NCBI GenBank assembly: GCA_023134135.1
Contig: JAGLVB010000004.1
Span: 24,233 to 88,232 of the forward strand
Origin: Candidatus Aenigmatarchaeota archaeon
GTDB lineage: Archaea > Aenigmatarchaeota > Aenigmatarchaeia > QMZS01
Direction: 5' to 3'
Length of the DNA stretch: 64,000 nucleotides
Shown: piece after piece, positions 4,181-25,313 of the stretch
Position numbering within the stretch: the first letter of the stretch is position 1
How the letters are laid out: each line of letters starts with the position of its first letter
Notes under the pieces: model-generated
What the model was told of the DNA's origin: nothing
The model's input: only the letters and a program-made list of their open reading frames with translations
The model's database searches: none
Program-made: the position numbers and the translations under genes

Positions 4181-4938
4181 CAAAACCTGAATTATATGGT
4201 TCCCCAGAATATAGAGATGCAATTGAAAGATTAGAGAAAAAATATGGTTTTAATGATTTATTTACGAATATGTTTCCAATTGAACTGCCTGATTATTATG
4301 AACGAATTGAAGCAGTTTTTGAGCAAGCGCCTGATGTTGTGAAAAAAGCTTATCTTGTAAATGTTAAATCTGAATTAGAAAAAATAGTGGATGATATCAG
4401 AAAATATAATATAAAATCAAATGCGCTGCTCGATGTTAGTACCCATATAGTTTTTCCATCATATCAAGGAAATGATTTTAAAGAGAGTTTAGGTAAAATT
4501 GTAAACCCTAAATCCCGTTTTGTTTTAAATGACAACTCAGCAGATTCGCTTAAAGAGAGGGAGTTTAGAGAAGTGGACGAACAAATGATGGATGAATTGG
4601 GAAGATTACATAAACTAATGTCTTATAAACCTAATTTATTGACTATTCAAGCAAAAATTGATACAAAAATAGAGGGAAGAACTGATAAGGGTAGCGCATT
4701 TATAAAATATAACATAACCTGTAGAGGGTTTCTTGATGATTGTAAATTTACTGTAAATAAGATAGGATCCTCATCATCTTACGGTGCGGATAGAGGATTA
4801 TATGAAATTGTTCCGGAGATAAATGGTGTTTTATATTATGGTCAAGGTGAGCTGGAATTTGGAGATGCTGTTAAAATTTTTGATGATGCTCTTAAAGGAG
4901 ATATTAAAGAAGTTGAAAAAGTCTGCACACGAATATAG
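4177..4938 (+). CDS. Hypothetical cytoplasmic protein, paralog X2 of 2321-3160
   Basis: Collinear with X1 at an estimated one third identity by eye. ATG at 4177. Confidence 0.5.
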   Translation: MAKPELYGSPEYRDAIERLEKKYGFNDLFTNMFPIELPDYYERIEAVFEQAPDVVKKAYLVNVKSELEKIVDDIRKYNIKSNALLDVSTHIVFPSYQGNDFKESLGKIVNPKSRFVLNDNSADSLKEREFREVDEQMMDELGRLHKLMSYKPNLLTIQAKIDTKIEGRTDKGSAFIKYNITCRGFLDDCKFTVNKIGSSSSYGADRGLYEIVPEINGVLYYGQGELEFGDAVKIFDDALKGDIKEVEKVCTRI

Positions 4939-8665: not shown

Positions 8666-9385
8666 CTAACTAAGAAATTTTCTTACAAAATCATTTTTTG
8701 GTTTTTTGAGAAATTCTTTTGGTTTTCCTTCCTGCAAAATTCTGCCTTCTTTCAGTATAACAATTTTGTCCGCAATATCAAAAATTTCAGAAGGATTGTG
8801 GGTAATATAGACAATTGTTAATTTCATTTTTTTCTGCAAACCGACAAGTTCTTTCTTCAGTTCTTTCTTCAACACAGGGTCTAAATTCGAAAAAGGTTCA
8901 TCAAGAAGCAGGATTTTTGAATCCTGCGCAAGAACCCTTGCAATTGCAAGTCTCTGTTTCTCGCCCCCGGATAGTTGGCGCGGGTATGATTTAATATATT
9001 TATCCAGATTAACAAGTTTAAGTATTTTTGTTATTTCTTTCTCTTTCTGCTCTGAATTGGTAATTCCTTTTGCGTCCAGAACAAAATCAAGATGTTCTTC
9101 AGCATTCATATGAGGCCATAATCCAAGGTCCTGAAAAACAAAACCAATATTTCTTTTTTCCGGCTCAACAAATATCTTTTCTGAACAAACGCATTTATTA
9201 TTTATGAAAATAGTTCCTTTATCAGGAATTTCCAACCCGGATATAATCCTGAGTAGAGTAGTTTTCCCGCTCCCGCTTGGACCCAGTATTCCCGTAATCT
9301 TATTTTTTTCAATTTCAAGGGAAATATCCGATAAAATTTCCTTTTCAAAATATTTTGAGATATTGCTAATTTTTATTTCTTCCAT
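8666..9385 (-). CDS. ABC transporter ATP-binding protein
   Basis: Walker A GPSGSGKTT, signature LSGGEKQRLAIARVL, Walker B ILLLDEP. Confidence 0.9.
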   Translation of the reverse strand: MEEIKISNISKYFEKEILSDISLEIEKNKITGILGPSGSGKTTLLRIISGLEIPDKGTIFINNKCVCSEKIFVEPEKRNIGFVFQDLGLWPHMNAEEHLDFVLDAKGITNSEQKEKEITKILKLVNLDKYIKSYPRQLSGGEKQRLAIARVLAQDSKILLLDEPFSNLDPVLKKELKKELVGLQKKMKLTIVYITHNPSEIFDIADKIVILKEGRILQEGKPKEFLKKPKNDFVRKFLS

Positions 9386-9495
9386 AATTATCTTTCTAAA
9401 AATAGAAGGGGAAATCTAAATACAATAATTTAGGTGTTTGTAGAATATTGACCCCTAAATTAATTATAGTCCATAAAAATAAAAAACAAAATAAA

Positions 9496-10524
9496 TTATC
9501 TTAAGAATATATTCTGCACAAATTCCCCTGAAATTTTTAGTTTTTCAAAAATCTGGTAATCATTAACGCTCATTCCTTTAATTTCGCTTAGTTTTGGAAC
9601 ATTTTTAGGGGTCTCAACATCTCTTGTTGGTATCTGGATTGCTTTTGTTTCTGAGAGTTTTTTCTCTACTTCTTTTGAAAGCAGGTAATCTATCAATATT
9701 TTCCCATTTTTTTCATTAGGCGCTCCTTTGATTAAAGCAACAGAATTTGGAATCACTAAAGTTCCAATTTGTTCATTGCCCTGGTCCGGGAATACAATTT
9801 TTACAGGCTTTTTATCTACAATTGCGTCATTTGCATCATCTGTGTCTGTAATTCCAACCCAGCACTCGCCCGCAACAACCTGATCCCTTACCATTGAATT
9901 GCTTGAAACAATCTGGATTTCATTTTCTTTTAAGTCCAGGAAAAATTGTTTTGCTTTTTCATCTCCAAACAAGGCAAATAAAGATGCTACATGAGTGCCT
10001 GTTGTTCCAAACAATGGGTTGGCAATGCATGTTTTTCCTTTCCATTTTTCATCCGCAAACTCAAGGAATGAATTTGGTTCTTCTTCTTCACTAACCAAAT
10101 TTGTATTGTATAAAATTACCCTTGCTCTTGCCGCAAAACCAGTCCAGTAACAGTTTCCATCTTTATATTGAGCTGGAATATCTATACTGCTTGGTGAACA
10201 ATATGGCTGAAACACATTTTCGTTTTTTAACTGTATTGACCTGCTGACTTCATTGTTCCAGAAAACATCTGCCCGCGGATTGCTTTTTTCCGCAATTAGT
10301 TTGTTTACTAATCCAACTGTTTTTGTTAGTTCTGTGTCGTACAAAATTTTTGTGGTTATTCCTGTTTCTCTTTCAAATTCTTTCAGGATAGGTTCGCTGT
10401 AATCCTGATCATGAGCAACATAAATCACAACTTCATTCTGTTGCTGGGAAGATTGCGCTGCCCAAAGTATACCTGCAATCACTGTTATCGCTATTATTCC
10501 TATTAAAATTTTTGTATTGTCCAT
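9496..10524 (-). CDS. ABC transporter periplasmic-type solute-binding protein (Fe3+/thiamine-like family)
   Basis: N-terminal TM/signal anchor, size and sequence pattern typical of family-1 SBPs. Sits between the permease and the ATPase. Confidence 0.65.
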   Translation of the reverse strand: MDNTKILIGIIAITVIAGILWAAQSSQQQNEVVIYVAHDQDYSEPILKEFERETGITTKILYDTELTKTVGLVNKLIAEKSNPRADVFWNNEVSRSIQLKNENVFQPYCSPSSIDIPAQYKDGNCYWTGFAARARVILYNTNLVSEEEEPNSFLEFADEKWKGKTCIANPLFGTTGTHVASLFALFGDEKAKQFFLDLKENEIQIVSSNSMVRDQVVAGECWVGITDTDDANDAIVDKKPVKIVFPDQGNEQIGTLVIPNSVALIKGAPNEKNGKILIDYLLSKEVEKKLSETKAIQIPTRDVETPKNVPKLSEIKGMSVNDYQIFEKLKISGEFVQNIFLR

Positions 10525-10599
10525 TATTATCTATTGGATATATATATGATGTTGCTTGTTAAAATATTTTTATACCAACAGGTTTTATTTCTTCCATAA

Positions 10600-12168
10600 T
10601 TATATTTTTGAAAGTAGTTCTTTCTTTGTCAATAATAACATAACGACTGGAATAAGAATCATAAGGATTAATATAATTGATAAAGAGGAAACCATTTCAG
10701 CATTACCATAGTGCATTAGTGTTTCTATTCTGCATGGCAGGGTCTGGATGCCAGGCGGAGAAACCAGTAAAGTGGTTCCGAGTTCTCTCAGACACAGAAC
10801 AAAACCAACAACAAAACCCGCGATTATTCCCTGTTTCGCAAGGGGCAGTTCAATTTTAAGTATTCTTTTCAGGAAACCAGCTCTTGCAAGTTTTGCGCTT
10901 TCTTCCGCAGAAGCCGATATTTGATTTAAAAAAGGTGAAAAAGTTTTGATAACAAATGGCAGGAATTGAATGAGATACCCGATAATAATAATTATAAATG
11001 TTGTGTAAATTAAATTTGCGCAGGGATTATTCCAGAAATAAATCAGCGAGATTCCTATAATTGATGAGGGGATGGCAATTGGCAGCAGGATAAACAAATC
11101 CATATATTTTGAATTCTTTGAGAAATAGGCAACAAAGAAAGCCGATATTGTCATTAACCCCGCTCCAAGAAGAGCAAGTCCCAATGAATTAAATATCTGG
11201 TTATGAGCAAGTATCAGGGCTTCTATCAATTTCAATTTTGATTCTATAAGGAGAATTGATAGAGGGATAAAAAATGCAAGGGTGATTACCGAGATAACGA
11301 ATACCAAACTGATAATTTTTTGTAATTTTGAAAGTTCAAGAAGATTGTTTTTTTTGTTTGAGTTGGTTGAAATAGTTACAAAGGATTTATCTTTTAACCA
11401 GAAATTGTAAATAGTAATTAATACCATCGCAAGAAATACTAAAGGCAATGATAATATAACCGCGCTTTCAAGGTTGAAGAATGCGCTGAACTGGGCAAAA
11501 ATTTCATTTGAATAAGTATTAATTCTTAACATACTTGGAACCCCGTATTCTGATAAAGTAAGAATAAAAACAAAAAATCCAGCAATTAATATTTGCGGTT
11601 TTATCAGAGGCAGAGTAATTTTGCTGAGAACCTTTTTTTTGCTGGTTACGAGATTTGCGGTTTCTTCAAGTTTGCTGTCAAGATTTCTTATTGCCAGGGA
11701 AGTCAGCAAGGTTATAATAGGAAACATTGACAGGGACATTATTATGATTGCTGTGTGCAGGTTATAGATGCTGAAAGGCAGACTGATGCTGACCAGATCT
11801 CCTCTTGCCCCGAGAAATTCCATCCATGCTATTGCAGAAATATATGGGGGAATCAAAAGCGGTAAATAGGAGATAATTTTTAGGAAAGATTTTCCGGGTA
11901 GATTGGTTCCTTCAAATAGAAAAGCCATTGGAACTCCTATGCACATGCACAATACCGCAGTCCCAAAAGCAAATACCAAAGTTCTTGCAAAAATAGTAAT
12001 TAATCTTGGGTCATAGAAGAAAGAGATATAGTTAACAAGAGATGTAATTGCTGAAGAATCATAGAGCAATTGAATGGAAAAGATGCTTGCGAACAAGTTC
12101 AGGATTGGAAGTATAATTATTATAAAGAACAGGGAGAATACAATAAATTTAAGGGATTTTTCGCTCAT
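10600..12168 (-). CDS. ABC transporter permease, fused two-domain type (FbpB/ThiP-like)
   Basis: 522-aa polytopic protein with two permease repeats. First gene of the permease-SBP-ATPase operon. Confidence 0.75.
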   Translation of the reverse strand: MSEKSLKFIVFSLFFIIIILPILNLFASIFSIQLLYDSSAITSLVNYISFFYDPRLITIFARTLVFAFGTAVLCMCIGVPMAFLFEGTNLPGKSFLKIISYLPLLIPPYISAIAWMEFLGARGDLVSISLPFSIYNLHTAIIIMSLSMFPIITLLTSLAIRNLDSKLEETANLVTSKKKVLSKITLPLIKPQILIAGFFVFILTLSEYGVPSMLRINTYSNEIFAQFSAFFNLESAVILSLPLVFLAMVLITIYNFWLKDKSFVTISTNSNKKNNLLELSKLQKIISLVFVISVITLAFFIPLSILLIESKLKLIEALILAHNQIFNSLGLALLGAGLMTISAFFVAYFSKNSKYMDLFILLPIAIPSSIIGISLIYFWNNPCANLIYTTFIIIIIGYLIQFLPFVIKTFSPFLNQISASAEESAKLARAGFLKRILKIELPLAKQGIIAGFVVGFVLCLRELGTTLLVSPPGIQTLPCRIETLMHYGNAEMVSSLSIILILMILIPVVMLLLTKKELLSKI

Positions 12169-12195
12169 AAAAAAGGTTGTTTTAAAAATAGGTTT
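12068..12195. repeat. Direct repeat DR1 (about 128 bp) covering the start, first ~33 codons and upstream region of the ABC permease gene
   Basis: Near-identical to 13429-13557 (offset 1361 bp) with only a few mismatches. Confidence 0.8.
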
Positions 12196-12205
12196 CTGTA
12201 ATTTT

Positions 12206-12460
12206 GTTTTTGAAAACAGGAAAATAAGAAGAGAGTGGCATATGATGGGTGGTATTTTTCCGTTGTTGATGTTGTTGAGGCTTTGACGGATAGTTCCGCT
12301 CCTCGTCAGTATTGAGGAGTATTGAAAAGCAGAGAAAATCAGTTGTTAACAATTTGTTTGTAACTGAAATTACAATCCTCAGACGGAAAATATTATTTTA
12401 CAGATTGCGCCAATACCGAAGGAATTTTTCGCATAATTCAATTAATCCCCTCTAAAAAAC
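12206..12460 (+). pseudogene. Degraded Bro-N gene fragment (ghost copy)
   Basis: Reads FENRKIRREWH..VVDVVEALTDSSAPRQY*..SSDGKYYFTDCANTEGIFRIIQLIPSKK across frames with stops and frameshifts. Collinear with residues ~10-100 of the intact copies. Confidence 0.7.
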
Positions 12461-12538: not shown

Positions 12539-13399
12539 ATGGACTCTGATAAAGCGCTTGTGGTTTTTGAAGATAAAAAAATCAGGAGAATTTGGCATAA
12601 TGGTGAATGGTGGTTTTCTATTGTTGATGTTGTTAGAGCATTAACTGAGAGTATTGATGCAAAAGATTATTGGTATAGATTAAAAAAGAGGGAATTGGAA
12701 TCAAGCGGAATTGAGTTATCGACGTTTTGTCGACAACTTAAATTAATTTCAACAGATGGCAAGAAATATGTTACAGACTGCGCAAACACAGAATCCTTAT
12801 TTAGAATAGTTCAATCAATCCCTTCCAAAAAAGCCGAACCATTTAAAAGATGGCTTGCAAAAGTCGGTTACGAACGGGTGCAGGAAATAGAGAATCCAGA
12901 ATTAGCGCAAAAAAGGATGAAAGAAATTTATAAAGCAAAAGGTTATTCTGACAATTGGATTGAAAAAAGAGTGAGAGGAATTGCGATAAGAGATGAATTA
13001 ACCGGAGAGTGGAAAAATCGCGGAGTAAACAAAAACATAGAATACGCAATTCTTACAAACGAGATAAGCAAGGCAACATTTGGAAAGACCGTCGAAGAAT
13101 ACAAACAATTCAAGAAATTAAATAGAGAAAATTTAAGAGACCACATGAATGATTTGGAACTTATATTTACGATGCTCGGCGAGGCGTCCACTACAAAAAT
13201 AGCCAAAAACCTTGATGCGCAGGGATTTGAGAGAAACAAAACTGCCGCAAGAAAAGGCGGAAGAATAGCGGGAAATGCAAGAAAAGAATTGGAAGTAGAA
13301 TCAAAAGAAAAAATAGTTACTTCTGATAATTATCTTGAAGAGTCTGAAAAAATAAAAAGATTGGGAAAAAAGAGAGCTGAACTTGAGGACAAAATATAA
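12539..13399 (+). CDS. Bro-N domain protein (BRO/DinD-like), copy 2
   Basis: MDSDKALVVFEDKKIRRIWHNGEWWFSIVDVVRALT. Long stretches of nucleotide identity with copy 3 at 54098. Confidence 0.7.
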   Translation: MDSDKALVVFEDKKIRRIWHNGEWWFSIVDVVRALTESIDAKDYWYRLKKRELESSGIELSTFCRQLKLISTDGKKYVTDCANTESLFRIVQSIPSKKAEPFKRWLAKVGYERVQEIENPELAQKRMKEIYKAKGYSDNWIEKRVRGIAIRDELTGEWKNRGVNKNIEYAILTNEISKATFGKTVEEYKQFKKLNRENLRDHMNDLELIFTMLGEASTTKIAKNLDAQGFERNKTAARKGGRIAGNARKELEVESKEKIVTSDNYLEESEKIKRLGKKRAELEDKI

Positions 13400-13428: not shown

Positions 13429-13557
13429 AATTGAATAGAAAAGATGCTTGCGAACAAGTTCAGGATTGGAAGTATAATTGTTATAAAGAACAGGGAGAAT
13501 ACAATAAGTTTAATGGATTTTTCGCTCATAAAAATATTTGTTTTAAAATAGAGTTTG
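13429..13557. repeat. Direct repeat DR2, an orphan duplicate of the permease 5' end
   Basis: Near-identical to 12068-12195. On the minus strand it encodes an orphan MSEKSIKLIVFSLFFITIILPILNLFASIFSIQL fragment. Confidence 0.8.
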
Positions 13558-13580
13558 GATAATCCTTCTAAAGCAAGGAT

Positions 13581-14372
13581 TTAAATATTTAATTCTGTAG
13601 CTGCCAGTACATAAAGTTTACATAAATCATTTGCAAATTTATCTTCCAGTTTTTCGCAAGTTTTAGTATCTTTGGATATAGTGCCTATGCACCGGGCTCT
13701 TTCCATTTTAGATAAAATAGAATCGCATAAATCAAGGTTATTTTCCATAACAGCTCGTTGACTATAACATGCATCGGTTCCGCAATAACTGGAATCTTCT
13801 GACATTATTGCGTCACACAGGTCTTTTTCCTGAGGTTCTGAGATAATTTCTTCGCAATAGGAAGAGTTATTTTTAACAACAGCTAAACAGGTATATTTTG
13901 CGCTTTCATGTCCAATATCATCACAATTTTCTTCAGCATATAGTTTGTAATATTTGTAGGGTATATACAGGAAGCAGGATTCCAAAAAAGTTGGCGATTC
14001 TATATATTCTTCGCATATTGATGGATTTTTTTCTTTTAAAGCAACATTTGAGAAACAGATTGTTCTTTGAAAAGGGTCATTGATTTGATTGCATAATTCA
14101 ATATTGGCATTTTTCATTGTGGAGAAACGCCAACAAATTGATCTTAAATTACCCGCAAGGTCGCAATAAGTTGAATTGCCGGTGAAAAAAGAATAACATA
14201 TTATTTTTGTTTCAGGGTGGCTGAAATTATCGCACATTTCAATTTTAGTTATAGGTTCTAAATTATTTTGGTTTTTATTAGAATTCAAAGTTATCAAAAC
14301 AATTGCAATAATTATCAGAATAATTGAAACATATAAAATGTTTTTGTTCCTTTTTTTTATATCCTTTGACAT
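13581..14372 (-). CDS. Membrane-anchored cysteine-repeat protein (island unit A, gene 4)
   Basis: N-terminal TM helix, then tandem degenerate repeats of the form C-x2-I/L-x(6-9)-C-aromatic-x3-aliphatic-x(5-8)-C, e.g. LCDSILSKMERARCIGTISKDTKTCEKLEDKFANDLCKLYVLA. Paralog of 14375-15136. Confidence 0.55.
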   Translation of the reverse strand: MSKDIKKRNKNILYVSIILIIIAIVLITLNSNKNQNNLEPITKIEMCDNFSHPETKIICYSFFTGNSTYCDLAGNLRSICWRFSTMKNANIELCNQINDPFQRTICFSNVALKEKNPSICEEYIESPTFLESCFLYIPYKYYKLYAEENCDDIGHESAKYTCLAVVKNNSSYCEEIISEPQEKDLCDAIMSEDSSYCGTDACYSQRAVMENNLDLCDSILSKMERARCIGTISKDTKTCEKLEDKFANDLCKLYVLAATELNI

Positions 14373-14374
14373 AA

Positions 14375-15136
14375 TTATTCATAAAATAAATCTAAGTCTT
14401 TTCCCATAAAGAATATTTTGCAAAGGTCTTTTTCATCTTCAAGTTCATTGCAGTTTTCTATTTTATCTGACGCAAATGCCACGCATTTTGCTCTTAAAAA
14501 TTCTGTTGGTTCTTCAAGACAATAATTCCAGTCGCTGTTTTTTGAGACCAGAATTGCGCATAATGGATTAAGGAAACCCTGCTCATCTTTGCACATTCCA
14601 ATATTTTTTGAAAACAATGCTTTGCAGGTGGTTCTTTCATAATAATCTTCTATCTGGTCGCAATATCCTAAATCTTTGGTGACTTTTGCCAGACAGGTAT
14701 ATTTATTATAATCAATTTTTATCAGATTGCAGGATTCTATAGTAGAATAGAAAAAATAACAGGAATCTTCTTCACATAAACTTAAATCACTTTTTGATTT
14801 TGCAAGTTTTCTAAGACATATATTTTTAATGGAGTTGTCTTTTATTTCATTGCAGAATATTTCATTAACACCTATTTTAGATAAAATAGCTTTTGCGCAA
14901 CCGCTTTTATATTTTCCACCAAAATCATTGCAAATATTTAAATCTTTTGAAAGGGTTGCATAACAGATAGTTCTTAATTTGGGATATACAAATTCATCGC
15001 AAATATTTATTTCATCCGCAGGTTCTTCATGAATTTCAATGTTTTGCAAGGGCGAATTTAATAAAGAAAGTCCAATTATAATAGATAAGGTTATACATAT
15101 TATTGCAATTGCGAGGTATTTTTTATCCATAATCAT
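14375..15136 (-). CDS. Membrane-anchored cysteine-repeat protein (island unit A, gene 3)
   Basis: Same architecture and repeat as 13581-14372 (YCDQIEDYYERTTCKALFSKNIGMCKD, NCNELEDEKDLCKIFF). Its ATG overlaps the upstream stop (ATGA at 15133-15136). Confidence 0.55.
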   Translation of the reverse strand: MIMDKKYLAIAIICITLSIIIGLSLLNSPLQNIEIHEEPADEINICDEFVYPKLRTICYATLSKDLNICNDFGGKYKSGCAKAILSKIGVNEIFCNEIKDNSIKNICLRKLAKSKSDLSLCEEDSCYFFYSTIESCNLIKIDYNKYTCLAKVTKDLGYCDQIEDYYERTTCKALFSKNIGMCKDEQGFLNPLCAILVSKNSDWNYCLEEPTEFLRAKCVAFASDKIENCNELEDEKDLCKIFFMGKDLDLFYE

Positions 15137-16329
15137 GTTTTTACCGAAACAACACTCGTGTTGTAAGTAAATTCAATATTATACATTCCTTTTTGGGTAA
15201 TGTTTTCAAAATTAATTGGAAAGGTGCAATCCAGATTTTTGCAACTGTTCAACATACATAATTGATTGCCCTGATATAATATAGGATAAGTAAAATACAT
15301 ATCTCTTGTAATTATAAGTGTTTCGCTTGGATTTCTTTCAGCTTTTGCGCAGATATCTTCAATTAAACTTGAGATTGTTTCAAGTTCTCCTTTTACAGCA
15401 GTTATTTTTATTATTCCTTCCCTCATGGTGGTTTCATTGTATCTAATTGTAATAGGAAGCACAATCTGGATTTCTTCTTCTTTTGCATCATGCGGAGAAA
15501 ATGAAGATATTCCGCTAACAGGTAGATATGCAAACCCCCAGGATTTTTGTTTAATATCTGATGTAAAATTCACTCCATAGGGTTCTCGACTTGCAGTTAT
15601 AGTAAGACCGCACCATGCATGAATATGTCTTATAGTTATTTCAGTGCAATTTGTCGCCGGGTCAATATTATAACATTCCATCATCCATGGATGTGAATTG
15701 CAGGTCTTCCTTACGCAGCAGGCCATTTCAGAAGTGCCTTCATAAATTTTTTCGCATTCCTCTGATGATTTTATATATTGCGAACAATCATAAGGCGTAC
15801 ACACAACACTGCGACCTCCGCAGTTTAAGGTTCTTGGAAAACGTCCATCCAGTTCACCACCACCACAGCAACCCTCCAAATTACCATCACAATGAATATA
15901 TATTGTTGGTTGTCCATGGAAAGCTATGCTCCAGTTTGAATTCTCCGGGTCGCATTCCTTTTCTTTTATTTGCATTCCCTGGTAAGTCCGGAAATTCTTT
16001 TCAAATTGGATTATCTCAATATTATAATCAAAATCCATGGCTTTTGCGTATTTTGGTTCAAGACCCTGATAACTATTATTAAAATCCAGAATTTTATTGA
16101 TATCAAGATTTCCTTTTTGCGTTACATTGTTATATTCATAAGCCAGGCATTCCTTGGTATTTATAAGTTTCTGCAGAATTTCCAGAGAATCCATCCTAAG
16201 TTCAGAACTTTCTTTTTCTTCGATAGTTGTGACTTTTGACATCTGCGAGATAAGGATAATTGATGTGAATGCCAGAACAGATATAACTATTAAAATCGCT
16301 TTAATAAAAAAGTTCATTTGACCTCTCAT
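15133..16329 (-). CDS. Class III signal (pilin-like) cysteine-rich secreted protein (island unit A, gene 2)
   Basis: Start moved to the internal ATG at 16329 (MRGQMNFFIKAILIVISVLAF), one nt after the upstream gene's stop. The track's longer N-terminus overlaps that upstream gene. Cys-rich core: CDGNLEGCCGGGELDGRFPRTLNCGGRSVVCTPYDC. Confidence 0.55.
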   Translation of the reverse strand: MRGQMNFFIKAILIVISVLAFTSIILISQMSKVTTIEEKESSELRMDSLEILQKLINTKECLAYEYNNVTQKGNLDINKILDFNNSYQGLEPKYAKAMDFDYNIEIIQFEKNFRTYQGMQIKEKECDPENSNWSIAFHGQPTIYIHCDGNLEGCCGGGELDGRFPRTLNCGGRSVVCTPYDCSQYIKSSEECEKIYEGTSEMACCVRKTCNSHPWMMECYNIDPATNCTEITIRHIHAWCGLTITASREPYGVNFTSDIKQKSWGFAYLPVSGISSFSPHDAKEEEIQIVLPITIRYNETTMREGIIKITAVKGELETISSLIEDICAKAERNPSETLIITRDMYFTYPILYQGNQLCMLNSCKNLDCTFPINFENITQKGMYNIEFTYNTSVVSVKT

Positions 16330-16330
16330 A

Positions 16331-17536
16331 TTAACATCCGCACCCTGGGCAAGGGCATGTAGTGCAACAGCGGCAGGGATCTCTCCAGAAAGCAATAGCC
16401 CCAACCCTGAAAATCATAGGAACAGGTCCTTTATCTGAAGGGACATGGAAATAATTATCTGTGCAGACATATTGGTGCGATGTGGCAAATCTTGCTTCAT
16501 AATGACATAAACAATAAGACTGTGCATGCACAACAGGCAAAAGATTTAAATCAATATTACTAAGATATTCATTGATTTTATCATAATATCCCTGCAGGAT
16601 TACATTAGGCGCAGGGCAAATGGATGATGTTGGAGGAGGAGGAACGCATTCATGTTCGCAGGATGAACTGCAATCATTATCCCAGGGCAGGCAACCGCAA
16701 GGATATCCGCAAATAGGTCCGATTCCTTGAGTGCAACAAAGGTAAGGTTTTGTTCTAATACATTCCACTTCAGTTTCATTAAATCTTCTTTGCAAATCAT
16801 CCAAGGCAAGTTCACCGCATCGTTCTGAAGCGACTATACAATCACCTGTGCATTCTTCTTCCCCTGAACGAGCATCGCAGGCACAGCCTAATAAAGCGCA
16901 AACACAAGGGGAATAAACATCGTCTTCAGCCCATTCATGGAAAATTCTATGAAGGTACCAGTATCGATTTCTGGTTATAAATTCATCTATATTCATATCA
17001 TCATTAACAGTTGCTCCGCCGCCGGATACAGAAACTAAAGCTTCGGTAATATTTACCCAGAAATTTCCTTCATCATAATATTTAGGGTCATAAACTCCAA
17101 CTGGATCTAAAACTTCATCCGGGTCAACATCATATTCACAGGATGAAAAATTTTTCTTTATTATAGTGATAGGCGTGTCCAAAACAGAATAATTGCCAAG
17201 ATAAACATTAGCATAATATAAAGTGTATTTTTCAAGACAATCTATTGAATCTTCAACAGGAAAATTATTTGGTCCATTGCAAATCCACTCCTGCGCTCCT
17301 ATCTGTCCTCCAAGGCAGGCATGTTCTCTTAAACTCTGATGAGCAGAATAAATATTTGCCTGCTTTGAATATCCTTTAAGTCTTTCTATTTCATTTCTTA
17401 ATGTATCCACAGTATATCTTTCAGAGATACTTTCCTCGTATTTTGTCCCGTAAAATGCATTGTAAAAAAAGTAACTTAATAATACACTTCCAATCAATAA
17501 TATTAGAAATATAATAGGGAGTAGTTGCGCTTTCAT
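16331..17536 (-). CDS. Extremely cysteine-rich secreted/anchored protein (island unit A, gene 1)
   Basis: N-terminal hydrophobic helix MKAQLLPIIFLILLIGSVLL. By hand count, 31 Cys in 401 aa, clustered as CVCALLGCACD, CCTQGIGPICGYPCGCLPWDNDCSSSCEHEC and a C-terminal CRCCTTCPCPGCGC. Confidence 0.55.
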   Translation of the reverse strand: MKAQLLPIIFLILLIGSVLLSYFFYNAFYGTKYEESISERYTVDTLRNEIERLKGYSKQANIYSAHQSLREHACLGGQIGAQEWICNGPNNFPVEDSIDCLEKYTLYYANVYLGNYSVLDTPITIIKKNFSSCEYDVDPDEVLDPVGVYDPKYYDEGNFWVNITEALVSVSGGGATVNDDMNIDEFITRNRYWYLHRIFHEWAEDDVYSPCVCALLGCACDARSGEEECTGDCIVASERCGELALDDLQRRFNETEVECIRTKPYLCCTQGIGPICGYPCGCLPWDNDCSSSCEHECVPPPPTSSICPAPNVILQGYYDKINEYLSNIDLNLLPVVHAQSYCLCHYEARFATSHQYVCTDNYFHVPSDKGPVPMIFRVGAIAFWRDPCRCCTTCPCPGCGC

Positions 17537-18161: not shown

Positions 18162-18208
18162 TTCAATTACTAATTATGAAGGGCACAGTGGATGTTTGGA
18201 TATGGATT
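18162..18208 (+). promoter_or_regulatory. 47-bp block (-14 to +33 around the ATG) duplicated perfectly at 21966-22012
   Basis: ttcaattactaattatgaagggcacagtggatgtttggatatggatt is identical in both places. An upstream aatactttt(a/g)ta TATA-like box is also conserved. Confidence 0.5.
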
Positions 18209-19792
18209 CTCGGAGGAGTCCTCGCAGGTTTATTAATTCTTGCAATCGCAAATTCTTATCTTACGCAGACCACAAAAACAATAGCTGAACAAAGGTCTAT
18301 TGAGCAGCATGATGAATTGCGAACGCAGATAAATGAACTTTGCTGGAGTTCTTCGGAAAATAAAAAACAATATGCAATAGATTTAAATGAAAATGTGCTT
18401 GGTGTTTATTTGACAGAAGACAAATATGTTGAATATGATGAAACCCAGTTTATAGATTTTATTCTTGATGAAAATGTTTCTTCAGGCAATCTTTTATGCA
18501 TGAAGATAAGAGACAAAAGATTACTGTGCGAACAACTTGATTGCAATGCAAGGATGACTTTTTTAGGTTCAGTCCCAACAGAATCTTCATTATCCGCTTT
18601 GATAGATAATATTATAGGAAATCCCGGGTCTTTTGAATATAAATTAAGTTTTAGCAAGTTTGGCAAGGAGGTTTTGATAAGTGTTGTTGGAGGGAAAGAA
18701 GTATTGCCTGTTTGCAATCTTGATGGTTTCTGCAATAAGGATGAATGCAGGGATGATTGCGAAGATTGTTATGGTCCTAGTCCGGTTTGCATTGGAGATG
18801 ATTTTTGCAATAGAGATATTGGAGAGGATTGCTTAACTTCTTTAGATTGCATATGCAATGCGAGCGAAGGATATAATTGTTGCAAAGAAGACCCTGCTTC
18901 AGATGATTCAGGTTGCGTTGATGAAACCAGACAGAATTTATCAAAAGGAGAAGAATGTTTTTGCCAAAATGAATGCAATATAACAGCGAATCTTGTTTGC
19001 AGTCCTGTGGCTGTTACTTATATAGGACTTATGAAATCTGCTTGTTGCGAGCCTGGTTATGGTTGGAATGGGAGTGATTGCGTTATGTTGGATCCCTGCC
19101 TTACTTTTTCTTCTAAAGGTCCCGGTGTTGTTTTTGCAGGGGTAGTAACCACATTTAGTATACAAAAATACAGTTCTAGTTCCCAAACAATTTCAATGAT
19201 GATGTCAATAGATAATGTTGTTGCAATAGCCCTCGCTGAAGGAGTTAATAATCATCCTGAATGGGGTGTTACAACACCCGATTCTTTAAATGCAACACAG
19301 AGATTGCAGGCGATATTTGAATGGGAAACCGCTAATGTTGGTTATTTATGCGATCAAGCTGGTACAGCGTGTCCTCACAATTGTCCTGAATGCGCTGGAA
19401 ATATGGTCTGTTCCTGTTTGGCGGGTTTTAATTGTGCTGGCGGAGATATCTGGTTGTCAGGAGAAGATACAATTACATTAACTCCTTCTTGTTGCAATGC
19501 AGGACCTTATCAATACCACGGGGACTGCGATGATTATGCTCATTTATATATTAGCATGGCGAGAACTGCAGGGGTATCAGAAGATTGCGTTGCATGGAAA
19601 TGCGGACCGGGTCATGCATTTAATGCAGCAAAAATTAATGGAAGGTGGGAATATGTGGATGCCCAGGGAGGTCAGGGTTTATCCTGGAACCAGATGATGC
19701 AGAGCACAGGTTTTATCCGGGGTTGCAGCGGATTTGGAGCCCCTCATAGCGGGTATACAGATTATAATTATATGGATATATGCGGTACTTAA
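18176..19792 (+). CDS. Pilin-like N-terminal module + Cys-rich stalk + C-terminal transglutaminase-like cysteine-protease-fold domain (island unit B, gene 1)
   Basis: MKGTVDVWIWILGGVLAGLLIL leader. Stalk: CNLDGFCNKDECRDDCEDCYGPSPVCIGDDFCNRDIGEDCL. C-terminus HGDCDDYAHLYISMARTAGVSEDCVAW..GHAFNAAKINGRWEYVDAQ fits the Cys/His/Asp core of the transglutaminase-like superfamily. Confidence 0.6.
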   Translation: MKGTVDVWIWILGGVLAGLLILAIANSYLTQTTKTIAEQRSIEQHDELRTQINELCWSSSENKKQYAIDLNENVLGVYLTEDKYVEYDETQFIDFILDENVSSGNLLCMKIRDKRLLCEQLDCNARMTFLGSVPTESSLSALIDNIIGNPGSFEYKLSFSKFGKEVLISVVGGKEVLPVCNLDGFCNKDECRDDCEDCYGPSPVCIGDDFCNRDIGEDCLTSLDCICNASEGYNCCKEDPASDDSGCVDETRQNLSKGEECFCQNECNITANLVCSPVAVTYIGLMKSACCEPGYGWNGSDCVMLDPCLTFSSKGPGVVFAGVVTTFSIQKYSSSSQTISMMMSIDNVVAIALAEGVNNHPEWGVTTPDSLNATQRLQAIFEWETANVGYLCDQAGTACPHNCPECAGNMVCSCLAGFNCAGGDIWLSGEDTITLTPSCCNAGPYQYHGDCDDYAHLYISMARTAGVSEDCVAWKCGPGHAFNAAKINGRWEYVDAQGGQGLSWNQMMQSTGFIRGCSGFGAPHSGYTDYNYMDICGT

Positions 19793-19794
19793 TA

Positions 19795-21333
19795 ATGGAG
19801 GTTGAAAGATTGCGGGACTTTGGAATATTAATAATATTTTTATCAATGTTTTTTACAATAAATACTGTTTATGCCGGACTATATTATACCGGAGATATAT
19901 CTCTTGAGAATGAAAATGTTTTGATTAAAGTTGAATATGGAGATAATGATGCTATTTTAATTGCTAATTCCAGCTATACCCTGAAAAATAATGGAGAAGA
20001 TCAGGAAATTGAATATGGGTATTATGTATTTGGTCAATTTATTAATGGAGGTATTTTAACTTTAAGTGCGGGGGAGGAGAAGATAATATTTTTTAATACT
20101 TCAAAAGTTTTGCAGGATTCTTATACAATAAATATGGATTTTAATCTGATGTTGAGTGGAAAATATATTGGAACAAAAACACAGGAAGGCGAATTTATAA
20201 TTAAATATCCTTCAAAACCAACAATCATTTCAATGAACCCGCAACCAACTCATTCAACGGATTTGGAATTAATATGGAGTAAGACAGATTATATCCCGGT
20301 TTTTAATATTCTTGTTAGCTGGGTAAAAGAAGAGATTAATGTTGATTTAAAAAAAGAGATTATTCCTTCAACTCTTCTGAAGAATGATGTTTTTACAGTT
20401 AAATCAATTATTAAAAATAATGATAATGTGGGTTATAAATATATTATTACGGATATTTACTCAACTGATTTTTATGAACCTGTAGATAAAACATATTTTG
20501 AGGAATTGATACCAGAAAGTCCCATGGAACCAAGTTACTGGAAATTTGAAAGAGAACTTGAAATTGGTTCCAATGAAGAAAAAGTTTTTGAATATCAGTT
20601 GGAATTTTTAGGGGCTAAAGGAATAAGCGAAATGGAGATACCCCCTTTTAATTTCTTTATTTCCGATAAAAACTTTTATAAATATTCAAATAAGGTGGGT
20701 GTGCTTGTAAATGTCTGCAATTTTAACAATATATGTGAAATTGAACTGGATGAATATTATCTAAATTGCCCTCAAGACTGCGTTTCAGGTTCAGTAGATG
20801 GATATTGCGATGGTATTGCGGATGGGATATGCGATGAAGATTGCTTAGCGCAGTCTATTCCCGAGTTAGATTCTGATTGTTCTTCATGCGGGGATGGCAA
20901 ATGCGATTTAGGAGAAACACGGGAAAACTGTTGCGTTGATTGCGGTTGCATTGGTGGAATGAAATGCCAGGACAATAAATGCGTTAAAACAGAAATATGC
21001 GGTGATGGAACCTGTTCAATACATGAAACTTATGAAAAATGCAAAGAGGATTGCCCTTCAGGCTCAAAAGATAATTATTGCGATAAAGTGGAAGATAATA
21101 TCTGCGACCCTGATTGCGCCCGAACCAGAGATGTGGATTGCTTGTGCAATAAAGATGGTATTTGCGAATCCAACTTTGAGACAAATTCAAATTGTCCCGA
21201 AGACTGTGAGTCAGATAACACCATAATATATTTAATCCTCGGATCAATTGCCCTAATTTCAATTATAATTTACTTAAGAAACCGTTCCAAAAAAACAAAA
21301 TGGAAGGAAATCTATGAGGAAACTTCAAACTAA
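19795..21333 (+). CDS. Secreted, C-terminally membrane-anchored protein with CARDB/DUF11-like beta domains and CGDGxC Cys-rich modules (island unit B, gene 2)
   Basis: Signal MEVERLRDFGILIIFLSMFFTINTVYA. Modules CGDGKCDLGETRENCCVDCGC, CGDGTCSIHETYEKCKEDC and CNKDGICESNFETNSNCPEDC. C-terminal TM IIYLILGSIALISIIIYL plus a basic tail. An alternative start at 19780 overlaps the upstream stop. Confidence 0.6.
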   Translation: MEVERLRDFGILIIFLSMFFTINTVYAGLYYTGDISLENENVLIKVEYGDNDAILIANSSYTLKNNGEDQEIEYGYYVFGQFINGGILTLSAGEEKIIFFNTSKVLQDSYTINMDFNLMLSGKYIGTKTQEGEFIIKYPSKPTIISMNPQPTHSTDLELIWSKTDYIPVFNILVSWVKEEINVDLKKEIIPSTLLKNDVFTVKSIIKNNDNVGYKYIITDIYSTDFYEPVDKTYFEELIPESPMEPSYWKFERELEIGSNEEKVFEYQLEFLGAKGISEMEIPPFNFFISDKNFYKYSNKVGVLVNVCNFNNICEIELDEYYLNCPQDCVSGSVDGYCDGIADGICDEDCLAQSIPELDSDCSSCGDGKCDLGETRENCCVDCGCIGGMKCQDNKCVKTEICGDGTCSIHETYEKCKEDCPSGSKDNYCDKVEDNICDPDCARTRDVDCLCNKDGICESNFETNSNCPEDCESDNTIIYLILGSIALISIIIYLRNRSKKTKWKEIYEETSN

Positions 21334-21365
21334 TTTAAATTTTGAAAGAGTTTATATTTAATGAG

Positions 21366-21928
21366 GGCCAAGAACTCACTGTGCTCTTGGCACAGGGCTG
21401 AATTGGCAACAGACGCAGAACTTTGCTAAAAAGATGCAGTAATTTTATGAAAGAAAAAAACGGGTTATGGCGTTGGTATCATAACATATCCGAATGTTAT
21501 TATCACCTACAAATCACGGTAAAATACAGGAAATCATTATTAGATAAAAGAACCGAGAAAATTATTCTTGAAACTCTAAAAGAATTCCCTGAGAGATATG
21601 ATATTGAAGTACAGGAAATTGGTTTTGATCAAAACCATGTGCATATATTATGCAGATTTTTACCGAAATATTCTGGAGGATAAATAATAAGAGTAATCAA
21701 AAGCAGAACAGCCCAAAATATATTCAGAGAAATCCCTGAAATAAAGAAGGAATTATGGGGAGGAGAATTTTGGACTGATGGTTATTACATAGCAACAATA
21801 AGCGGACGAGGGAACAAGAAAGTAATTGAGGAATATATAAGAAAACAGGGAAGAGAAGAAACTATAAAACAACTGAAATTGTTTGAGATTTAATTGGGAC
21901 GCCCTGTGCTCTTGGCACAGGGAATTTC
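21366..21928 (+). mobile_element. IS200/IS605-family element (tnpA only) with subterminal hairpins
   Basis: Hairpins ctgtgc-tcttg-gcacag at 21379-21397 and ccctgtgc-tcttg-gcacaggg at 21902-21922 bracket a Y1-transposase ORF. Confidence 0.7.
21447..21893 (+). pseudogene. tnpA: IS200-type Y1 transposase TnpA interrupted by an in-frame TAA
   Basis: MKEKNGLWRWYHNISECYYHLQITVKYRK...HVHILCRFLPKYSGG-TAA(21681-21683)-IIRVIKSRTAQNIFREIPEIKKELWGGEFWTDGYYIATISGRG. The same frame continues after the stop. Collinear with the intact TnpA at 41414-41845. Confidence 0.7.
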
Positions 21929-21979
21929 ACAATGAATTTTGAATTTAAGCAAATACTTTTGTATATTCAATTACTAATT

Positions 21980-22495
21980 ATGAAGGGCACAGTGGATGTT
22001 TGGATATGGATTGTTGCAGGTATTATAGCAGGCTTATTAATTTTAACTTTGGCTTATTCTTATTCACTCCAGATGATAAATACAACAATTGAACAAAATG
22101 TTTTAGAACAATATGATGAATTATACACACAAACAAATGAACTCTGTTGGAGTTATTTAGGAAACCAAAAAGAGTATAATCTGATTTTAAACAAAAACAT
22201 TCTTGGAATTTATTTAACCTCGAATCAATATTTGGAATACAATGGCTCGCAGTTAATAGATTATATTCTCGAAGAAAATGTCTCTTCAGGGAATTTTTTA
22301 TGCATAAAAATAAAAAATAAAAAAATCATCTGTAAACAATTTGATTGCAATGCGACGATGCCTTTTTTAGGCGCAGTCCCTATAGAATTTTCATTAAAAT
22401 CTCTAATTAATCAGATAAAAGGCAACCCGGAATCTTTTGAATATAATTTAGTGCTTAAAAGAGATAAGGTAGGTGTTAATATTTCCAAAAGATGA
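21980..22495 (+). CDS. Stand-alone pilin-like module, paralog of residues 1-170 of the 18176 product (island unit C, gene 1)
   Basis: MKGTVDVWIWIVAGIIAGLLILTL..NELCWS..ENVSSGNFLCIKIKNKKIICKQFDCNATMPFLGAVP is collinear with the N-terminus of the 18176 protein. Start set at the ATG shared by the 47-bp duplicated block (the track starts at 21932). Confidence 0.6.
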   Translation: MKGTVDVWIWIVAGIIAGLLILTLAYSYSLQMINTTIEQNVLEQYDELYTQTNELCWSYLGNQKEYNLILNKNILGIYLTSNQYLEYNGSQLIDYILEENVSSGNFLCIKIKNKKIICKQFDCNATMPFLGAVPIEFSLKSLINQIKGNPESFEYNLVLKRDKVGVNISKR

Positions 22496-22523
22496 ATTAA
22501 TATACATATATCCCAATTTATAT

Positions 22524-24362
22524 ATGGGGATTGATAATTATATCTTGATGATTGGTTCAATTTTGGTTGGCCTGATACTTTTCTTTGCGGCTCAGGTTTA
22601 TCTTACAGGCAGCGTTGATGAAACCGAGGGTTATATTGCAAAAGGATCTGCTGAAAGGATTGTGTCTGTGCTTGAAAAATTAACAGGAGAACCTTCATAT
22701 GCAAGTTATTGTTTCAACATTTCCCTTTCTGATTTGAAAGTTGAGAATGGTTACCTGACTTTCAGGCAGGGTGGAAAGGAATCTTTTTATCCGGTGCCAA
22801 AGGAAGCTAATAATGTTGATTTAAAAGAAATCGCAAGTGTTTGTTTTGTGCATTTGGCAGACGGGGAAATAATTATTTCTGAGGAACTTCCGGATTGCGA
22901 TATGAACACAATTTGCGCTGCTGATGAATGCTTTGAAAATTGTCCTGATTGTTATGGTCCGGATTTATTGTGTATTGGTGATGGGTTTTGCAATATAGAT
23001 ATAGGTGAAAATTGTCTAAATTCACCAGATTGTATTTGTAATGTTAGCGGTTCTAATCCAGTATGTTGCCCTGAGGACCCTTATTCAGATGAATCCGGTT
23101 GCGTTAATGAAACCCGACTTAACAGGTCGAAAGGCGAAGAATGTTTTTGCGACAATGAATGTAATATAACTCTTAACTGTAACCCCACTTCACCAACTTT
23201 TTATGGTTATGCTAAGGCATGTTGCGATCCAGGAAAGAGCTGGAATGGGACTAATTGTACTTGGGGTGGAGATGTTTTAATAGTTGCTTTAAAATCTAAT
23301 ATGGAAAGTGCTTATCCCGGACAATTAACCTTATTTGAAAACAAGATTAGAGCTTATCAGTCTGCATTGGGTGGTGATGGTCTTGGTTCAATCTTCCTTT
23401 ATCTTGACGAAGATGAAACTTCAGATATAATTGGAAGCAAAGTTACAAACCCAGATAACTGGAATAATATAGATGGCATTCTTGACCAGTTGATTCCAAA
23501 ATTAAATTCATCTTATCTTGTGATAATTGGAGGGTATGGTAGATTTATCCAACCTCATGCAGGATCTGCTTATGGGAAACCATTTGAATCAGATAATTTT
23601 TATGGGGATCTTACTGGAGACAATATATTGGATATTCCTGTTGGAAGATTTCCTGACCCGAATAATGGGGATTTGGATGTTATTTTGAATGCTTTGGATA
23701 CAAGTATTTCATTGCATAATTCTGGAGGGGTTGATATTTCAAACCATATTGCTCCAATAATGAGTTGCGGGGGTTTTGATAATCGGGCATGGACGAGTGG
23801 AAGATGTTTCTGTTCTGCGGTATGGGGTGGTTCTTGTTCTGCATGCGGCACTTGTTGCGGTTGCATATCTTTAGCTCCGCTTTCAGGAAAAGATTTTGTA
23901 ATGGTTCTTGCTCATGGACCTGGACCTTCAAGTGGCGATTTATTGCATGGAGGGTGTTTAAATACAAATCCAACTGGAGTTGCGGGGATTGATACTTCAA
24001 ATTCGGTTTGGATGTCCATGTCCTGCGGCGGGGGTCATTTAAGACTAAAATCATCAACTTCAGGTTCTATTGTTATGACATTTCTAAAGAATGACGGTGC
24101 AATCTATTTTGGGAGTACTGCTAACAACAGGGGAACTCTTGGTGGTGGGTGCCCTGTCCCTGGCGGAGATAGGCTTATAGGAACTTTATATACTTTGGTA
24201 GCAAACAATTTTCAGGTAAATATAGGAACCGGTGTTGGGAACAGGATTGGTGATTATTATATGGCAGGGAAAAATAGTTACTGGAGCGATTATGGCAATA
24301 GAGAATATATTATTAACTGTCTTTATGGAGACCCAACTTTGAAAATTAAGAATATGTGGTAA
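22524..24362 (+). CDS. TM/pilin-like N-terminus + Cys-rich stalk + C-terminal peptidase C25 (gingipain)-like clan CD domain (island unit C, gene 2)
   Basis: MGIDNYILMIGSILVGLILFFAA. Stalk CDMNTICAADECFENCPDCYGPDLLCIGDGFCNIDIGENCL is homologous to the 18176 stalk. C25-like blocks: YLVIIGGYGRFIQP, SDNFYGDLTGDNILDIPVGRFP, VMVLAHGPG (His) and WMSMSCGGG (Cys). An alternative start at 22473 would overlap the upstream gene. Confidence 0.55.
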   Translation: MGIDNYILMIGSILVGLILFFAAQVYLTGSVDETEGYIAKGSAERIVSVLEKLTGEPSYASYCFNISLSDLKVENGYLTFRQGGKESFYPVPKEANNVDLKEIASVCFVHLADGEIIISEELPDCDMNTICAADECFENCPDCYGPDLLCIGDGFCNIDIGENCLNSPDCICNVSGSNPVCCPEDPYSDESGCVNETRLNRSKGEECFCDNECNITLNCNPTSPTFYGYAKACCDPGKSWNGTNCTWGGDVLIVALKSNMESAYPGQLTLFENKIRAYQSALGGDGLGSIFLYLDEDETSDIIGSKVTNPDNWNNIDGILDQLIPKLNSSYLVIIGGYGRFIQPHAGSAYGKPFESDNFYGDLTGDNILDIPVGRFPDPNNGDLDVILNALDTSISLHNSGGVDISNHIAPIMSCGGFDNRAWTSGRCFCSAVWGGSCSACGTCCGCISLAPLSGKDFVMVLAHGPGPSSGDLLHGGCLNTNPTGVAGIDTSNSVWMSMSCGGGHLRLKSSTSGSIVMTFLKNDGAIYFGSTANNRGTLGGGCPVPGGDRLIGTLYTLVANNFQVNIGTGVGNRIGDYYMAGKNSYWSDYGNREYIINCLYGDPTLKIKNMW

Positions 24363-24363
24363 T

Positions 24364-25212: not shown

Positions 25213-25313
25213 AATTGACCTGATATTTTAATATTAATTGAGTTGATTATTTTTATCCAACATTAATAAATATTTTGTGAGTGTTCTTATATATAAGGTA
25301 AGCATAATATATT

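Follow-up and report, generated by a model that had tools for sequence, protein, structure and literature searches.

Archaea of the DPANN group are thought to live attached to hosts, and their attachment hardware is mostly unannotated. Makarova and co-workers described pilus islands in DPANN genomes whose many signal-bearing products lack annotation and were predicted to be divergent pilins (PMC6393860). Type IV filaments of 'System 1' have also been found in DPANN, where they come with numerous pilins and accessory proteins (10.64898/2026.04.22.720090). The present analysis concerns a 64,000-nucleotide stretch, hereafter the window, of contig JAGLVB010000004.1 from Candidatus Aenigmatarchaeota archaeon, part of a 248-kb scaffold of a cold-seep metagenome, and within it four adjacent cysteine-rich genes, named here g1 to g4. 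The island that holds them fits both of these descriptions: the four are unnamed families inside a known kind of system, the DPANN type IV filament island, in which unannotated pilins were already anticipated (PMC6393860). With modest confidence, we read g1–g4 as a conserved module within an archaeal pilus-like (type IV filament) island that serves attachment. No literature description of g1–g4, or of families built on the 26-residue repeat of which g3 and g4 carry compact versions, was found.

Several other described systems offer partial counterparts. A Gln residue at position +1 is typical of euryarchaeal EppA-type substrates, and pilins usually resemble each other only at their N-terminus. 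In well-studied bacteria, the vWA modules of pilus subunits are adhesins, and PilB of Streptococcus sanguinis is a modular type IV pilin with such a module. The Helicobacter cysteine-rich proteins (Hcp) carry two cysteines per repeat, which form a disulfide clamping the helix pair, while CxC, CC and CxxC patterns are typical of metallothioneins. In Sulfolobus, the bindosome (Bas) is a pilus-type assembly tied to the binding proteins of ATP-binding cassette (ABC) transporters. Bacteria of the candidate phyla radiation (CPR) pair type IV pili with an MdbA-like oxidoreductase and VKOR (10.1101/335083).

Compared with archaeal type IV pilins, including those of the Epd-like System 1 loci and of DPANN pilus islands, g1 and g2 have the same short basic leader with a K/R-G/A pair, Gln at +1 and a hydrophobic helix. 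As in those systems, the similarity between subunits is N-terminal only and divergent pilin genes are clustered with a gene for a T2SSF-type platform. Unlike archaeal pilins, g1 and g2 are about 400 residues long, several times the size of a normal pilin, are hyper-cysteine-rich and match no pilin model in Pfam. Unlike archaeal pilus loci, the island also has an embedded ABC transporter and no assembly ATPase or prepilin peptidase gene seen nearby.

A conserved operon of cysteine-rich exported proteins

The four genes and their parts are as follows.

16331–17536, minus strand: g1, 401 residues, 31 Cys (7.7%), pilin-like, with an MKAQ start, a long predicted N-terminal helix and an alpha/beta head
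17456–17536, minus strand: N-terminal signal of g1, MKAQ and, after it, ~23 residues of hydrophobic character; the putative cleavage site follows Ala3 and puts Gln at +1
16334–16375, minus strand: C-terminal tail of g1, CRCCTTCPCPGCGC, 8 Cys in 14 residues; low model confidence
15133–16329, minus strand: g2, 398 residues from the conserved MRGQ ATG, 19 Cys, modular and pilin-like
15556–15975, minus strand: Cys-rich insert of g2, residues ~119–258, with 14 of the 19 Cys; its length and Cys count vary across the family
14375–15136, minus strand: g3, 253 residues, 19 Cys including one within the membrane anchor; repeat region ~14402–15007
13581–14372, minus strand: g4, paralogue of g3, 263 residues, 18 Cys; repeat region ~13608–14240

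An initial annotation of this DNA had described four cysteine-rich open reading frames (ORFs) at 13581–17536 as an operon for extracytoplasmic proteins. All four are present there on the minus strand, a recount confirmed the 31 cysteines that it had given for the 401 residues of g1, and the motifs that it had quoted (CVCALLGCACD, CCTQGIGPICGYPCGCLPWDNDCSSSCEHEC, the CRCCTTCPCPGCGC tail and MRGQ) were all found. The start of g2 was taken as the ATG at 16329, which gives the M-K/R-G-Q of its homologues; the mechanical TTG start at 16404 has no homologue support. With this start, g1 and g2 are separated by 1 nt, g2 and g3 overlap by 4 nt, and g3 and g4 are separated by 2 nt, a tight packing that bears out the operon arrangement. 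Each of the four proteins has a single N-terminal hydrophobic segment, which supports the proposed extracytoplasmic location. Scans of g1–g4 against Pfam and NCBIfam gave nothing above noise and comparisons with the PDB added nothing, in agreement with the earlier failure to assign any of the four to a named family.

Cysteine makes up 4.8–7.7% of the residues of g1–g4, against 0.89% (101/11311 residues) in ORFs of at least 150 residues outside the interval 13.5–33.7 kb, and the excess in each gene has a binomial tail probability between 2e-19 and 6e-9. The four genes are thus as cysteine-rich as first described, but they do not form a closed set: the same interval has 15 large ORFs with a mean cysteine content of 5.48%, and about 13 of them are cysteine-rich. 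Since exported proteins elsewhere in the window are Cys-poor (0.5% in the 1196-residue protein encoded at 47632–51222 and 1.2% in a solute-binding protein), cysteine richness is a trait of the island and not of the whole exoproteome. Such a density had been called unusual for archaeal surface proteins, a statement that holds for the local comparison made here, within the window.

Homologues of g1 fall into 53 clusters (38–87% identity, essentially full length, none with a precomputed Pfam domain) and those of g2 into 26; all are unnamed metagenomic proteins, and coverage of the full length persists down to 32–38% identity in both families. A scan of species-representative genomes placed relatives of g1 in Aenigmatarchaeota genome bins, the closest at 92% identity. 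Thirteen related loci (L001–L013) have the order g1-g2-g3-g4, with products of ~400, 400, 250 and 260 residues, and retain it down to ~33–38% identity; wherever the organism is named, it is an Aenigmatarchaeota. Three loci (L008, L009 and L013) have a single g3/g4-type gene instead of two, and L012, whose ORFs end at g1, has only g1 and a g2 paralogue. g1–g4 are real genes and their operon is conserved. The initial annotation had named lack of conservation, as expected of spurious or decaying ORFs, as the outcome that would undo it. Nothing beyond the absent annotation speaks for this outcome, and the dozens of full-length homologues, the gene order kept across 13 loci, the invariant cysteines and the confident fold predictions leave it practically no probability.

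Prepilin-like N-termini of g1 and g2

The g1 protein begins with MKAQ followed by LLPIIFLILLIGSVLL, and g2 with MRGQ followed by MNFFIKAILIVISVLAF; both have one hydrophobic segment, at residues 5–23 in g1. A prepilin-like start had been ascribed to g2 only, correctly as far as its MRGQ is concerned, but the MKAQ of g1 is prepilin-like as well. Of the 49 members of the g1 family, in which Q4 is nearly invariant, 44 have a [KR][GAS]Q start; so do 12 of the 20 g2 members, most of the other g2 sequences beginning at internal start calls. Orthologues of 38–90% identity retain both Q4 and the K/R-G/A pair. Alignment of the g1 and g2 profiles with hhalign revealed similarity over the first 50 residues only.

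An AlphaFold2 model of g1, obtained from 49 sequences (predicted local distance difference test, pLDDT, 85.2; predicted template modeling score, pTM, 0.76), comprises a 73-residue helix (residues 2–74) and an alpha/beta head with long hairpins. The cysteine-dense region 200–300 is among its best-predicted parts, and the proline-rich linker 305–339 and the last residues are uncertain. Foldseek found no relative of this model in the PDB (best E 0.5, to non-pilins) or in BFVD, and the g1 profile had no meaningful match among PDB sequences. With regard to the features that define pilins, g1 has the charged leader, a hydrophobic stretch of ~20 residues and, in the model, an N-terminal helix followed by a head; g2 has the leader and the hydrophobic stretch, and the leader is lacking in g3 and g4.

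An exchangeable module in g2

Alignment of the g2 family revealed conserved N-terminal and C-terminal thirds around a hypervariable middle, which in the window is the Cys-rich insert. A relative from locus L013, P0068, aligns to residues 1–118 of g2 (65% identity) and to residues 259–398 (57%), with a vWA domain between the two. The same replacement of the insert by a vWA domain (E 2e-11 to 1e-13) is found in three further relatives, P0072, L010:8501–9925 and L012:8009–9517, and in L010 a vWA version and a Cys-rich version of g2 stand on opposite sides of g1. No vWA match was obtained for g2 itself in the Pfam scan. The initial annotation had missed that the cysteine-rich stretch of g2 is a swappable insert.

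Because relatives carry a vWA domain at this position, and vWA domains of bacterial pilus subunits are adhesins, the Cys-rich insert appears to fill the slot of a binding module. Judged from these alignments, g2 is a predicted modular pilin-like adhesin. It resembles the modular pilins represented by PilB of S. sanguinis in that an adhesive module is grafted onto a pilin-type scaffold; in the four relatives this module is a vWA domain. It differs from them in that its module is a Cys-rich knot placed between the N- and C-terminal halves of the scaffold, and in being an archaeal protein with no detectable sequence relationship to them.

A pilus-like island around g1–g4

In every locus, the neighbors of g1–g4 include a polytopic protein, small pilins, proteins with a pilin-type N-domain and an ABC transporter. 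In the window these and the other genes of the region are the following.

8666–12168, minus strand: ABC transporter recognized by Pfam and NCBIfam (ATPase 8666–9385, solute-binding protein 9496–10524, double-domain permease 10600–12168)
18176–33590: span of the island beyond g1–g4, with pilin-like and Cys-rich exoproteins; the same gene set surrounds g1–g4 in L001–L013
18176–19792: pilin-type N-domain with a weak transglutaminase-like Pfam match
19780–21333: Cys-rich protein anchored at its C-terminus, in which CGDGxC...E...C..DC-type motifs recur
21932–22495: protein with a pilin-type N-domain
22524–24362: Peptidase_C25-bearing protein with its own N-terminal anchor (E 1.8e-9, above the cut-off); recurs in relatives
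24364–25212: anchored protein of 282 residues, 36 of them Cys (12.8%), a density that no other island gene reaches; no family match
25314–26276, 26316–26696 and 26699–28714: exoprotein ORFs of the island
29007–29492 and 29523–30131, minus strand: exoprotein ORFs of the island, the latter starting MKKGQMSLE...
30184–32262, plus strand: platform protein (PilC/TadC/FlaJ-like), polytopic, with ~8 hydrophobic segments
32259–32654, 32647–33189 and 33186–33590: ORFs of the island
32259–33590 and 29007–30131: the regions that encode small proteins, three or four in number, whose N-termini are of pilin type

The polytopic protein has a Pfam T2SSF match in five of six orthologues (best E 2.1e-5; 0.0076 for the copy in the window), and this match, together with its ~8 hydrophobic segments, identifies it as a type IV filament platform. 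In L008 and L010, g4 is followed immediately by the gene of this protein, which in L011 is a few genes off. PDB sequence searches with this protein and with a 745-residue protein (36181–38418) returned no matches. Since the platform gene, the small pilins and the same neighbors recur around them, g1–g4 are linked to this filament island.

The pilin-type N-domain (MKGTVDVWIW...) comprises ~160 residues and either stands by itself or is joined to enzyme-like domains (18176–19792 and 21932–22495 in the window; L001:15961–17388 and L003:15303–16670). Its fusion partners are the weak transglutaminase-like match in the window and Peptidase_M28 and weak Reprolysin-like matches in relatives, and a weak GH43-like match was also obtained among the island proteins of the window. 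These domain combinations suggest that the filament system displays or secretes hydrolases. A possible homology between g1 and the divergent Cys-rich gene at 18176–19792 was rejected, as the comparison shows none. The motifs of the protein at 19780–21333 are, we presume, akin to the Cys-rich repeats of other microbial surface proteins.

The ABC transporter adjoins g1–g4 in 12 of 13 related loci, despite inversions and reshuffling. It belongs to the broad iron, thiamine, phosphonate and molybdate-type group, and as to its substrate every NCBIfam equivalog score was far below the cut-off. The N-terminus of its solute-binding protein (MDNTKILIGIIAIT...) does not contain the [KR][GA] motif of class III (prepilin-type) signals.

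g3, g4 and a widespread two-cysteine repeat

As the initial annotation had proposed, g3 and g4 are a paralogous pair, with 27% identity (E 3e-22) and one N-terminal anchor each; this anchor has no class III motif. They had been described as built from a helical-looking unit of 18–20 residues. Repeat analysis gave instead a two-cysteine unit of ~21–30 residues, present nine times per protein, with Cys-to-Cys steps mostly of 10–15. Among g3/g4 orthologues of ~25% identity, 18 cysteines are invariant with a near-fixed spacing (12-11-10-15-12-14...) and little else is conserved.

The expectation of a helical fold agrees with the AlphaFold2 model of g4 (7 sequences, pLDDT 83.6), an all-alpha solenoid with a membrane helix at residues 3–32 and nine units of a short and a long helix, in which one Cys lies in or beside every helix. 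The resemblance of this model to HEAT, armadillo and TPR solenoids of the PDB was insignificant in Foldseek (best E 0.17), and the g3/g4 profile had no meaningful match among PDB sequences. The two proteins resemble Hcp and other Sel1-like solenoids as exported alpha/alpha-repeat proteins with two cysteines per repeat. They differ from them by a unit of 21–30 residues (C-x11-C-x13) instead of 36–44, and no Pfam match to Sel1 (PF08238) or TPR was obtained at E<=1.

A profile of g3 and g4 searched against 1.84 billion cluster representatives retrieved 1524 proteins at E<=1e-3, of which 199 reached E<=1e-10. Many of these repeat proteins are 400–1000 residues long with 4–8 matched stretches, and many have lipoprotein-like or anchor N-termini. 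Their consensus unit of 26 residues, CEKIKDxxxKDxCYxxVAxxxKDPSL (C-x11-C-x13), occurs 778 times in 144 of the 149 top proteins. Ten long members went unrecognized in Pfam and NCBIfam, with no Sel1 or TPR match at E<=0.1. The two genomic contexts examined have archaeal-type neighbors. Going by these profile searches, the 26-residue repeat is real and unnamed in Pfam and NCBIfam but widespread, with g3 and g4 as compact members residing in the island; the claim that it is novel is therefore right as to the databases, and wrong if it is taken to mean confined to these two genes. For curators, the analysis yields two unnamed families: g1, without a relative of solved fold, and the 26-residue repeat, with more than 1500 clusters.

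On an unrelated contig with archaeal-type neighbors (L014:1–75), a DsbD_TM (CcdA-like) gene lies ~6 kb from the gene of a 927-residue protein made of the 26-residue repeat. It is possibly a lead to thiol-redox machinery serving the repeat family.

Disulfide bonds or metal sites

The initial annotation had left open whether the cysteines form disulfide knots or coordinate metals. Sixteen cysteines are at least 90% conserved in the g1 family, and the variable ones were examined for joint presence, the counts being taken without regard to kinship between the sequences. In the 49 g1 members, C74 and C307 are both present in 39, one alone in 1 and 1, and both absent in 8; the corresponding figures are 37, 1, 1 and 10 for C86/C293 and 18, 0, 0 and 31 for C280/C388. 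In g2, C358 and C363 are both present in 13 of 20 members and both absent in the other 7. Each of the three g1 pairs is missing from its own set of sequences, hence independently of the others, and the two partners lie 100–230 residues apart. Loss in independent twos favors disulfides over metal sites with three or four ligands, and 39 of the 49 g1 members have an even number of cysteines. As C388 is the first cysteine of the tail and covaries with C280 of the core, the tail seems tethered to the head; the C280/C388 covariation suggests a tail-tethering disulfide.

The repeat proteins point in the same direction. Both cysteines of every unit are invariant among the g3/g4 orthologues. In the wider family, the loss of a single cysteine is very rare, and additional residues are found 17 times in the loop between the two cysteines of a unit against 2 times elsewhere, a restriction that fits a disulfide-closed loop. 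Co-loss is uninformative on pairing here, since every detected 26-residue unit keeps both cysteines; even totals are trivial with two cysteines per unit, and a test of array termini is obscured by non-canonical units, which interrupt the arrays. Taken together, these patterns favor disulfides rather than metal sites for the cysteines of g1–g4, at least in g1, and thereby narrow the question first left open.

Several points tell against disulfides. The covariation counts are uncorrected for phylogeny, even cysteine numbers show no excess in g2 (11 of 20 members), and g1 of the window has an odd number, 31. Cold seeps are typically anoxic and sulfidic, conditions unfavorable to disulfide formation. 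The initial annotation had advised a search for disulfide-forming machinery, and it revealed no exported oxidase of the DsbA, MdbA or VKOR type in the window and 10 kb on each side. The only thioredoxin-fold gene in these ~84 kb encodes a leaderless, cytoplasmic CSHC thioredoxin (55790–56104). The comparison with CPR type IV pili (10.1101/335083) is thus partial: both cases concern ultrasmall symbionts with pili thought central to host contact and, in CPR, pilin folding needs disulfides, but the archaeon has this thioredoxin and no MdbA or VKOR counterpart within the same distance. The question raised is how an anaerobe with a reduced genome forms disulfides by the dozen outside the cell, or how it does without them.

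The failure to find an exported oxidase nearby and the cold-seep source are also the circumstances in which metal or cluster coordination would be attractive, with reduced cysteines binding Zn, Cu, Fe or Fe-S, chiefly in the g1 tail and the g3/g4 ladders, for metal scavenging, metal storage or redox contact with the host. The tail has the CxC, CC and CxxC patterns of metallothioneins and, with 8 Cys in 14 residues, their density, although it is a C-terminal appendage of an exported protein of 390 residues and matches no family. A cysteine-rich tail of some kind is present in 39 of 49 g1 homologues (the short form CxCCxxCxCxxCxC in 11, a longer and different one in 28 more), the neighboring ABC transporter belongs to a group that includes iron and molybdate systems, and the cysteine counts of both g1 and g2 in the window are odd. 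However, the variable cysteines of g1 covary strictly in independent twos, not in threes or fours, and most members of its family have even counts. The two cysteines per helix pair of g3 and g4 are an arrangement known from disulfide clamps. No CxxCH or ferredoxin-type motif was found, and no His or Asp co-conserved with the cysteines was noted. Metal coordination as the main role of these cysteines is therefore doubtful. A mixed state, in which part of them (the g1 tail and the solvent-facing g3/g4 ladders) stays reduced and binds metal or metal-sulfide, appears improbable; if true, the pilus-like organelle would be a metal-thiolate contact for scavenging or for electron exchange with the host, and might be functionally tied to the adjacent ABC importer.

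One further gene of this cysteine-rich genome concerns cysteine supply. The ORF at 51316–52830 combines a class II tRNA synthetase core with a SepRS C-terminal domain and, from these domains, is likely an O-phosphoseryl-tRNA synthetase of the tRNA-dependent route to cysteine.

Proposed role of the module and alternative readings

In the attachment reading, g1 and g2 would be exported through class III signals and probably cut by a prepilin peptidase after Gly/Ala, leaving Gln at +1. Through their hydrophobic N-terminal helices, they could be retained by the platform machinery or built in as minor or tip subunits; their large heads are probably stabilized by many disulfides. g2 would act as a scaffold with an insertion site, which accepts a fast-evolving Cys-rich knot here and a vWA adhesin domain in relatives, and g1 is perhaps an adhesin like g2. 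According to the g4 model, g3 and g4 would form rigid anchored alpha-solenoids, each unit probably clamped by one disulfide, and by analogy with PilN/PilO or FlaF/FlaG they are most likely a membrane-proximal scaffold or stator. The overall role would be attachment to a host cell or a surface. Seen in this way, the envelope protein set of the initial annotation consists of exported proteins, as proposed, but is not free-standing: it belongs to a type IV filament island. The module thus offers concrete candidates for attachment in Aenigmatarchaeota, with a pilin-like scaffold on which a Cys-rich knot and a vWA domain are exchanged.

A number of results weigh against this assignment. Neither g1 nor g2 matches a Pfam pilin model (Class_IIIsignal, PF04021; archaeal Pilin_N, PF07790) at E<=1, and in Foldseek neither the g1 nor the g4 model matches a solved pilin fold. 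A prepilin peptidase (Peptidase_A24) and a T2SSE-type assembly ATPase were not found in the 64-kb window and 10 kb on each side. The search for RNA sequencing runs containing the locus found none, the only run being one of cold-seep DNA. Finally, adhesion leaves the near-constant adjacency of the ABC transporter unexplained.

It is this adjacency that an uptake or 'feeding' pseudopilus, similar to the bindosome or to type II secretion, would account for: g1–g4 would be substrate-capture or scaffold parts of an island that displays binding proteins and hydrolases and feeds the adjacent importer. DPANN archaea depend on imported metabolites, the ABC transporter abuts g1–g4 in nearly all loci, pilin-type N-domains are fused to enzyme domains, and the island holds a Peptidase_C25 above the cut-off besides the weaker transglutaminase-like and GH43-like matches, with Peptidase_M28 and weak Reprolysin-like matches in relatives. 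The likeness to Bas lies in this genetic linkage of a pilus-type system with an ABC transporter; unlike in Bas, the solute-binding protein is without a class III motif and no BasE-like ATPase was seen. Moreover, the replacement of the Cys-rich insert by vWA points to adhesion, and synteny may be merely inherited in small, related genomes. We regard this alternative as rather unlikely, and feeding and adhesion can coexist. The failure to match pilin models and folds, the clear lack of a class III motif in g3 and g4 and the peptidase and ATPase not seen nearby would also suit generic envelope or S-layer-associated proteins, whose MK[GA]Q starts would be ordinary signal anchors. Such an explanation seems decidedly doubtful, as it does not account for the conservation of Q4 and the K/R-G/A pair, for the 73-residue N-terminal helix of the g1 model or for the position of the genes among pilins and next to a platform gene.

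Mobile elements and other genes of the window

The permease gene of the ABC transporter is partly duplicated. A direct repeat of 135 nt (12068–12202 and 13429–13563, 90% identity) brackets a Bro-N domain gene (12539–13399), and its second copy, a duplicate of the 5' end of the permease gene, directly follows g4. As g4 directly precedes the permease in the close relatives L005 and L007, the arrangement looks as if a Bro-N cassette had been inserted with a long duplication, and a short remnant resembling Bro-N is present at 12206–12294. Three paralogous Bro-N domain genes are scattered in the window (3255–4118, 12539–13399 and 54098–54922), the first of them between two mutually similar genes (2321–3160 and 4177–4938); they may mark a mobile or virus-derived family of cassettes.

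A truncated IS200-like Y1 transposase lies within the island (21447–21683), and a full Y1 copy (41414–41845) and a split IS1595-type transposase (40495–41311) are found elsewhere in the window. The window also encodes an MvaI/BcnI-family restriction endonuclease (56256–57002) and an N4/N6 DNA methylase (57271–58557), which form a type II restriction-modification pair.

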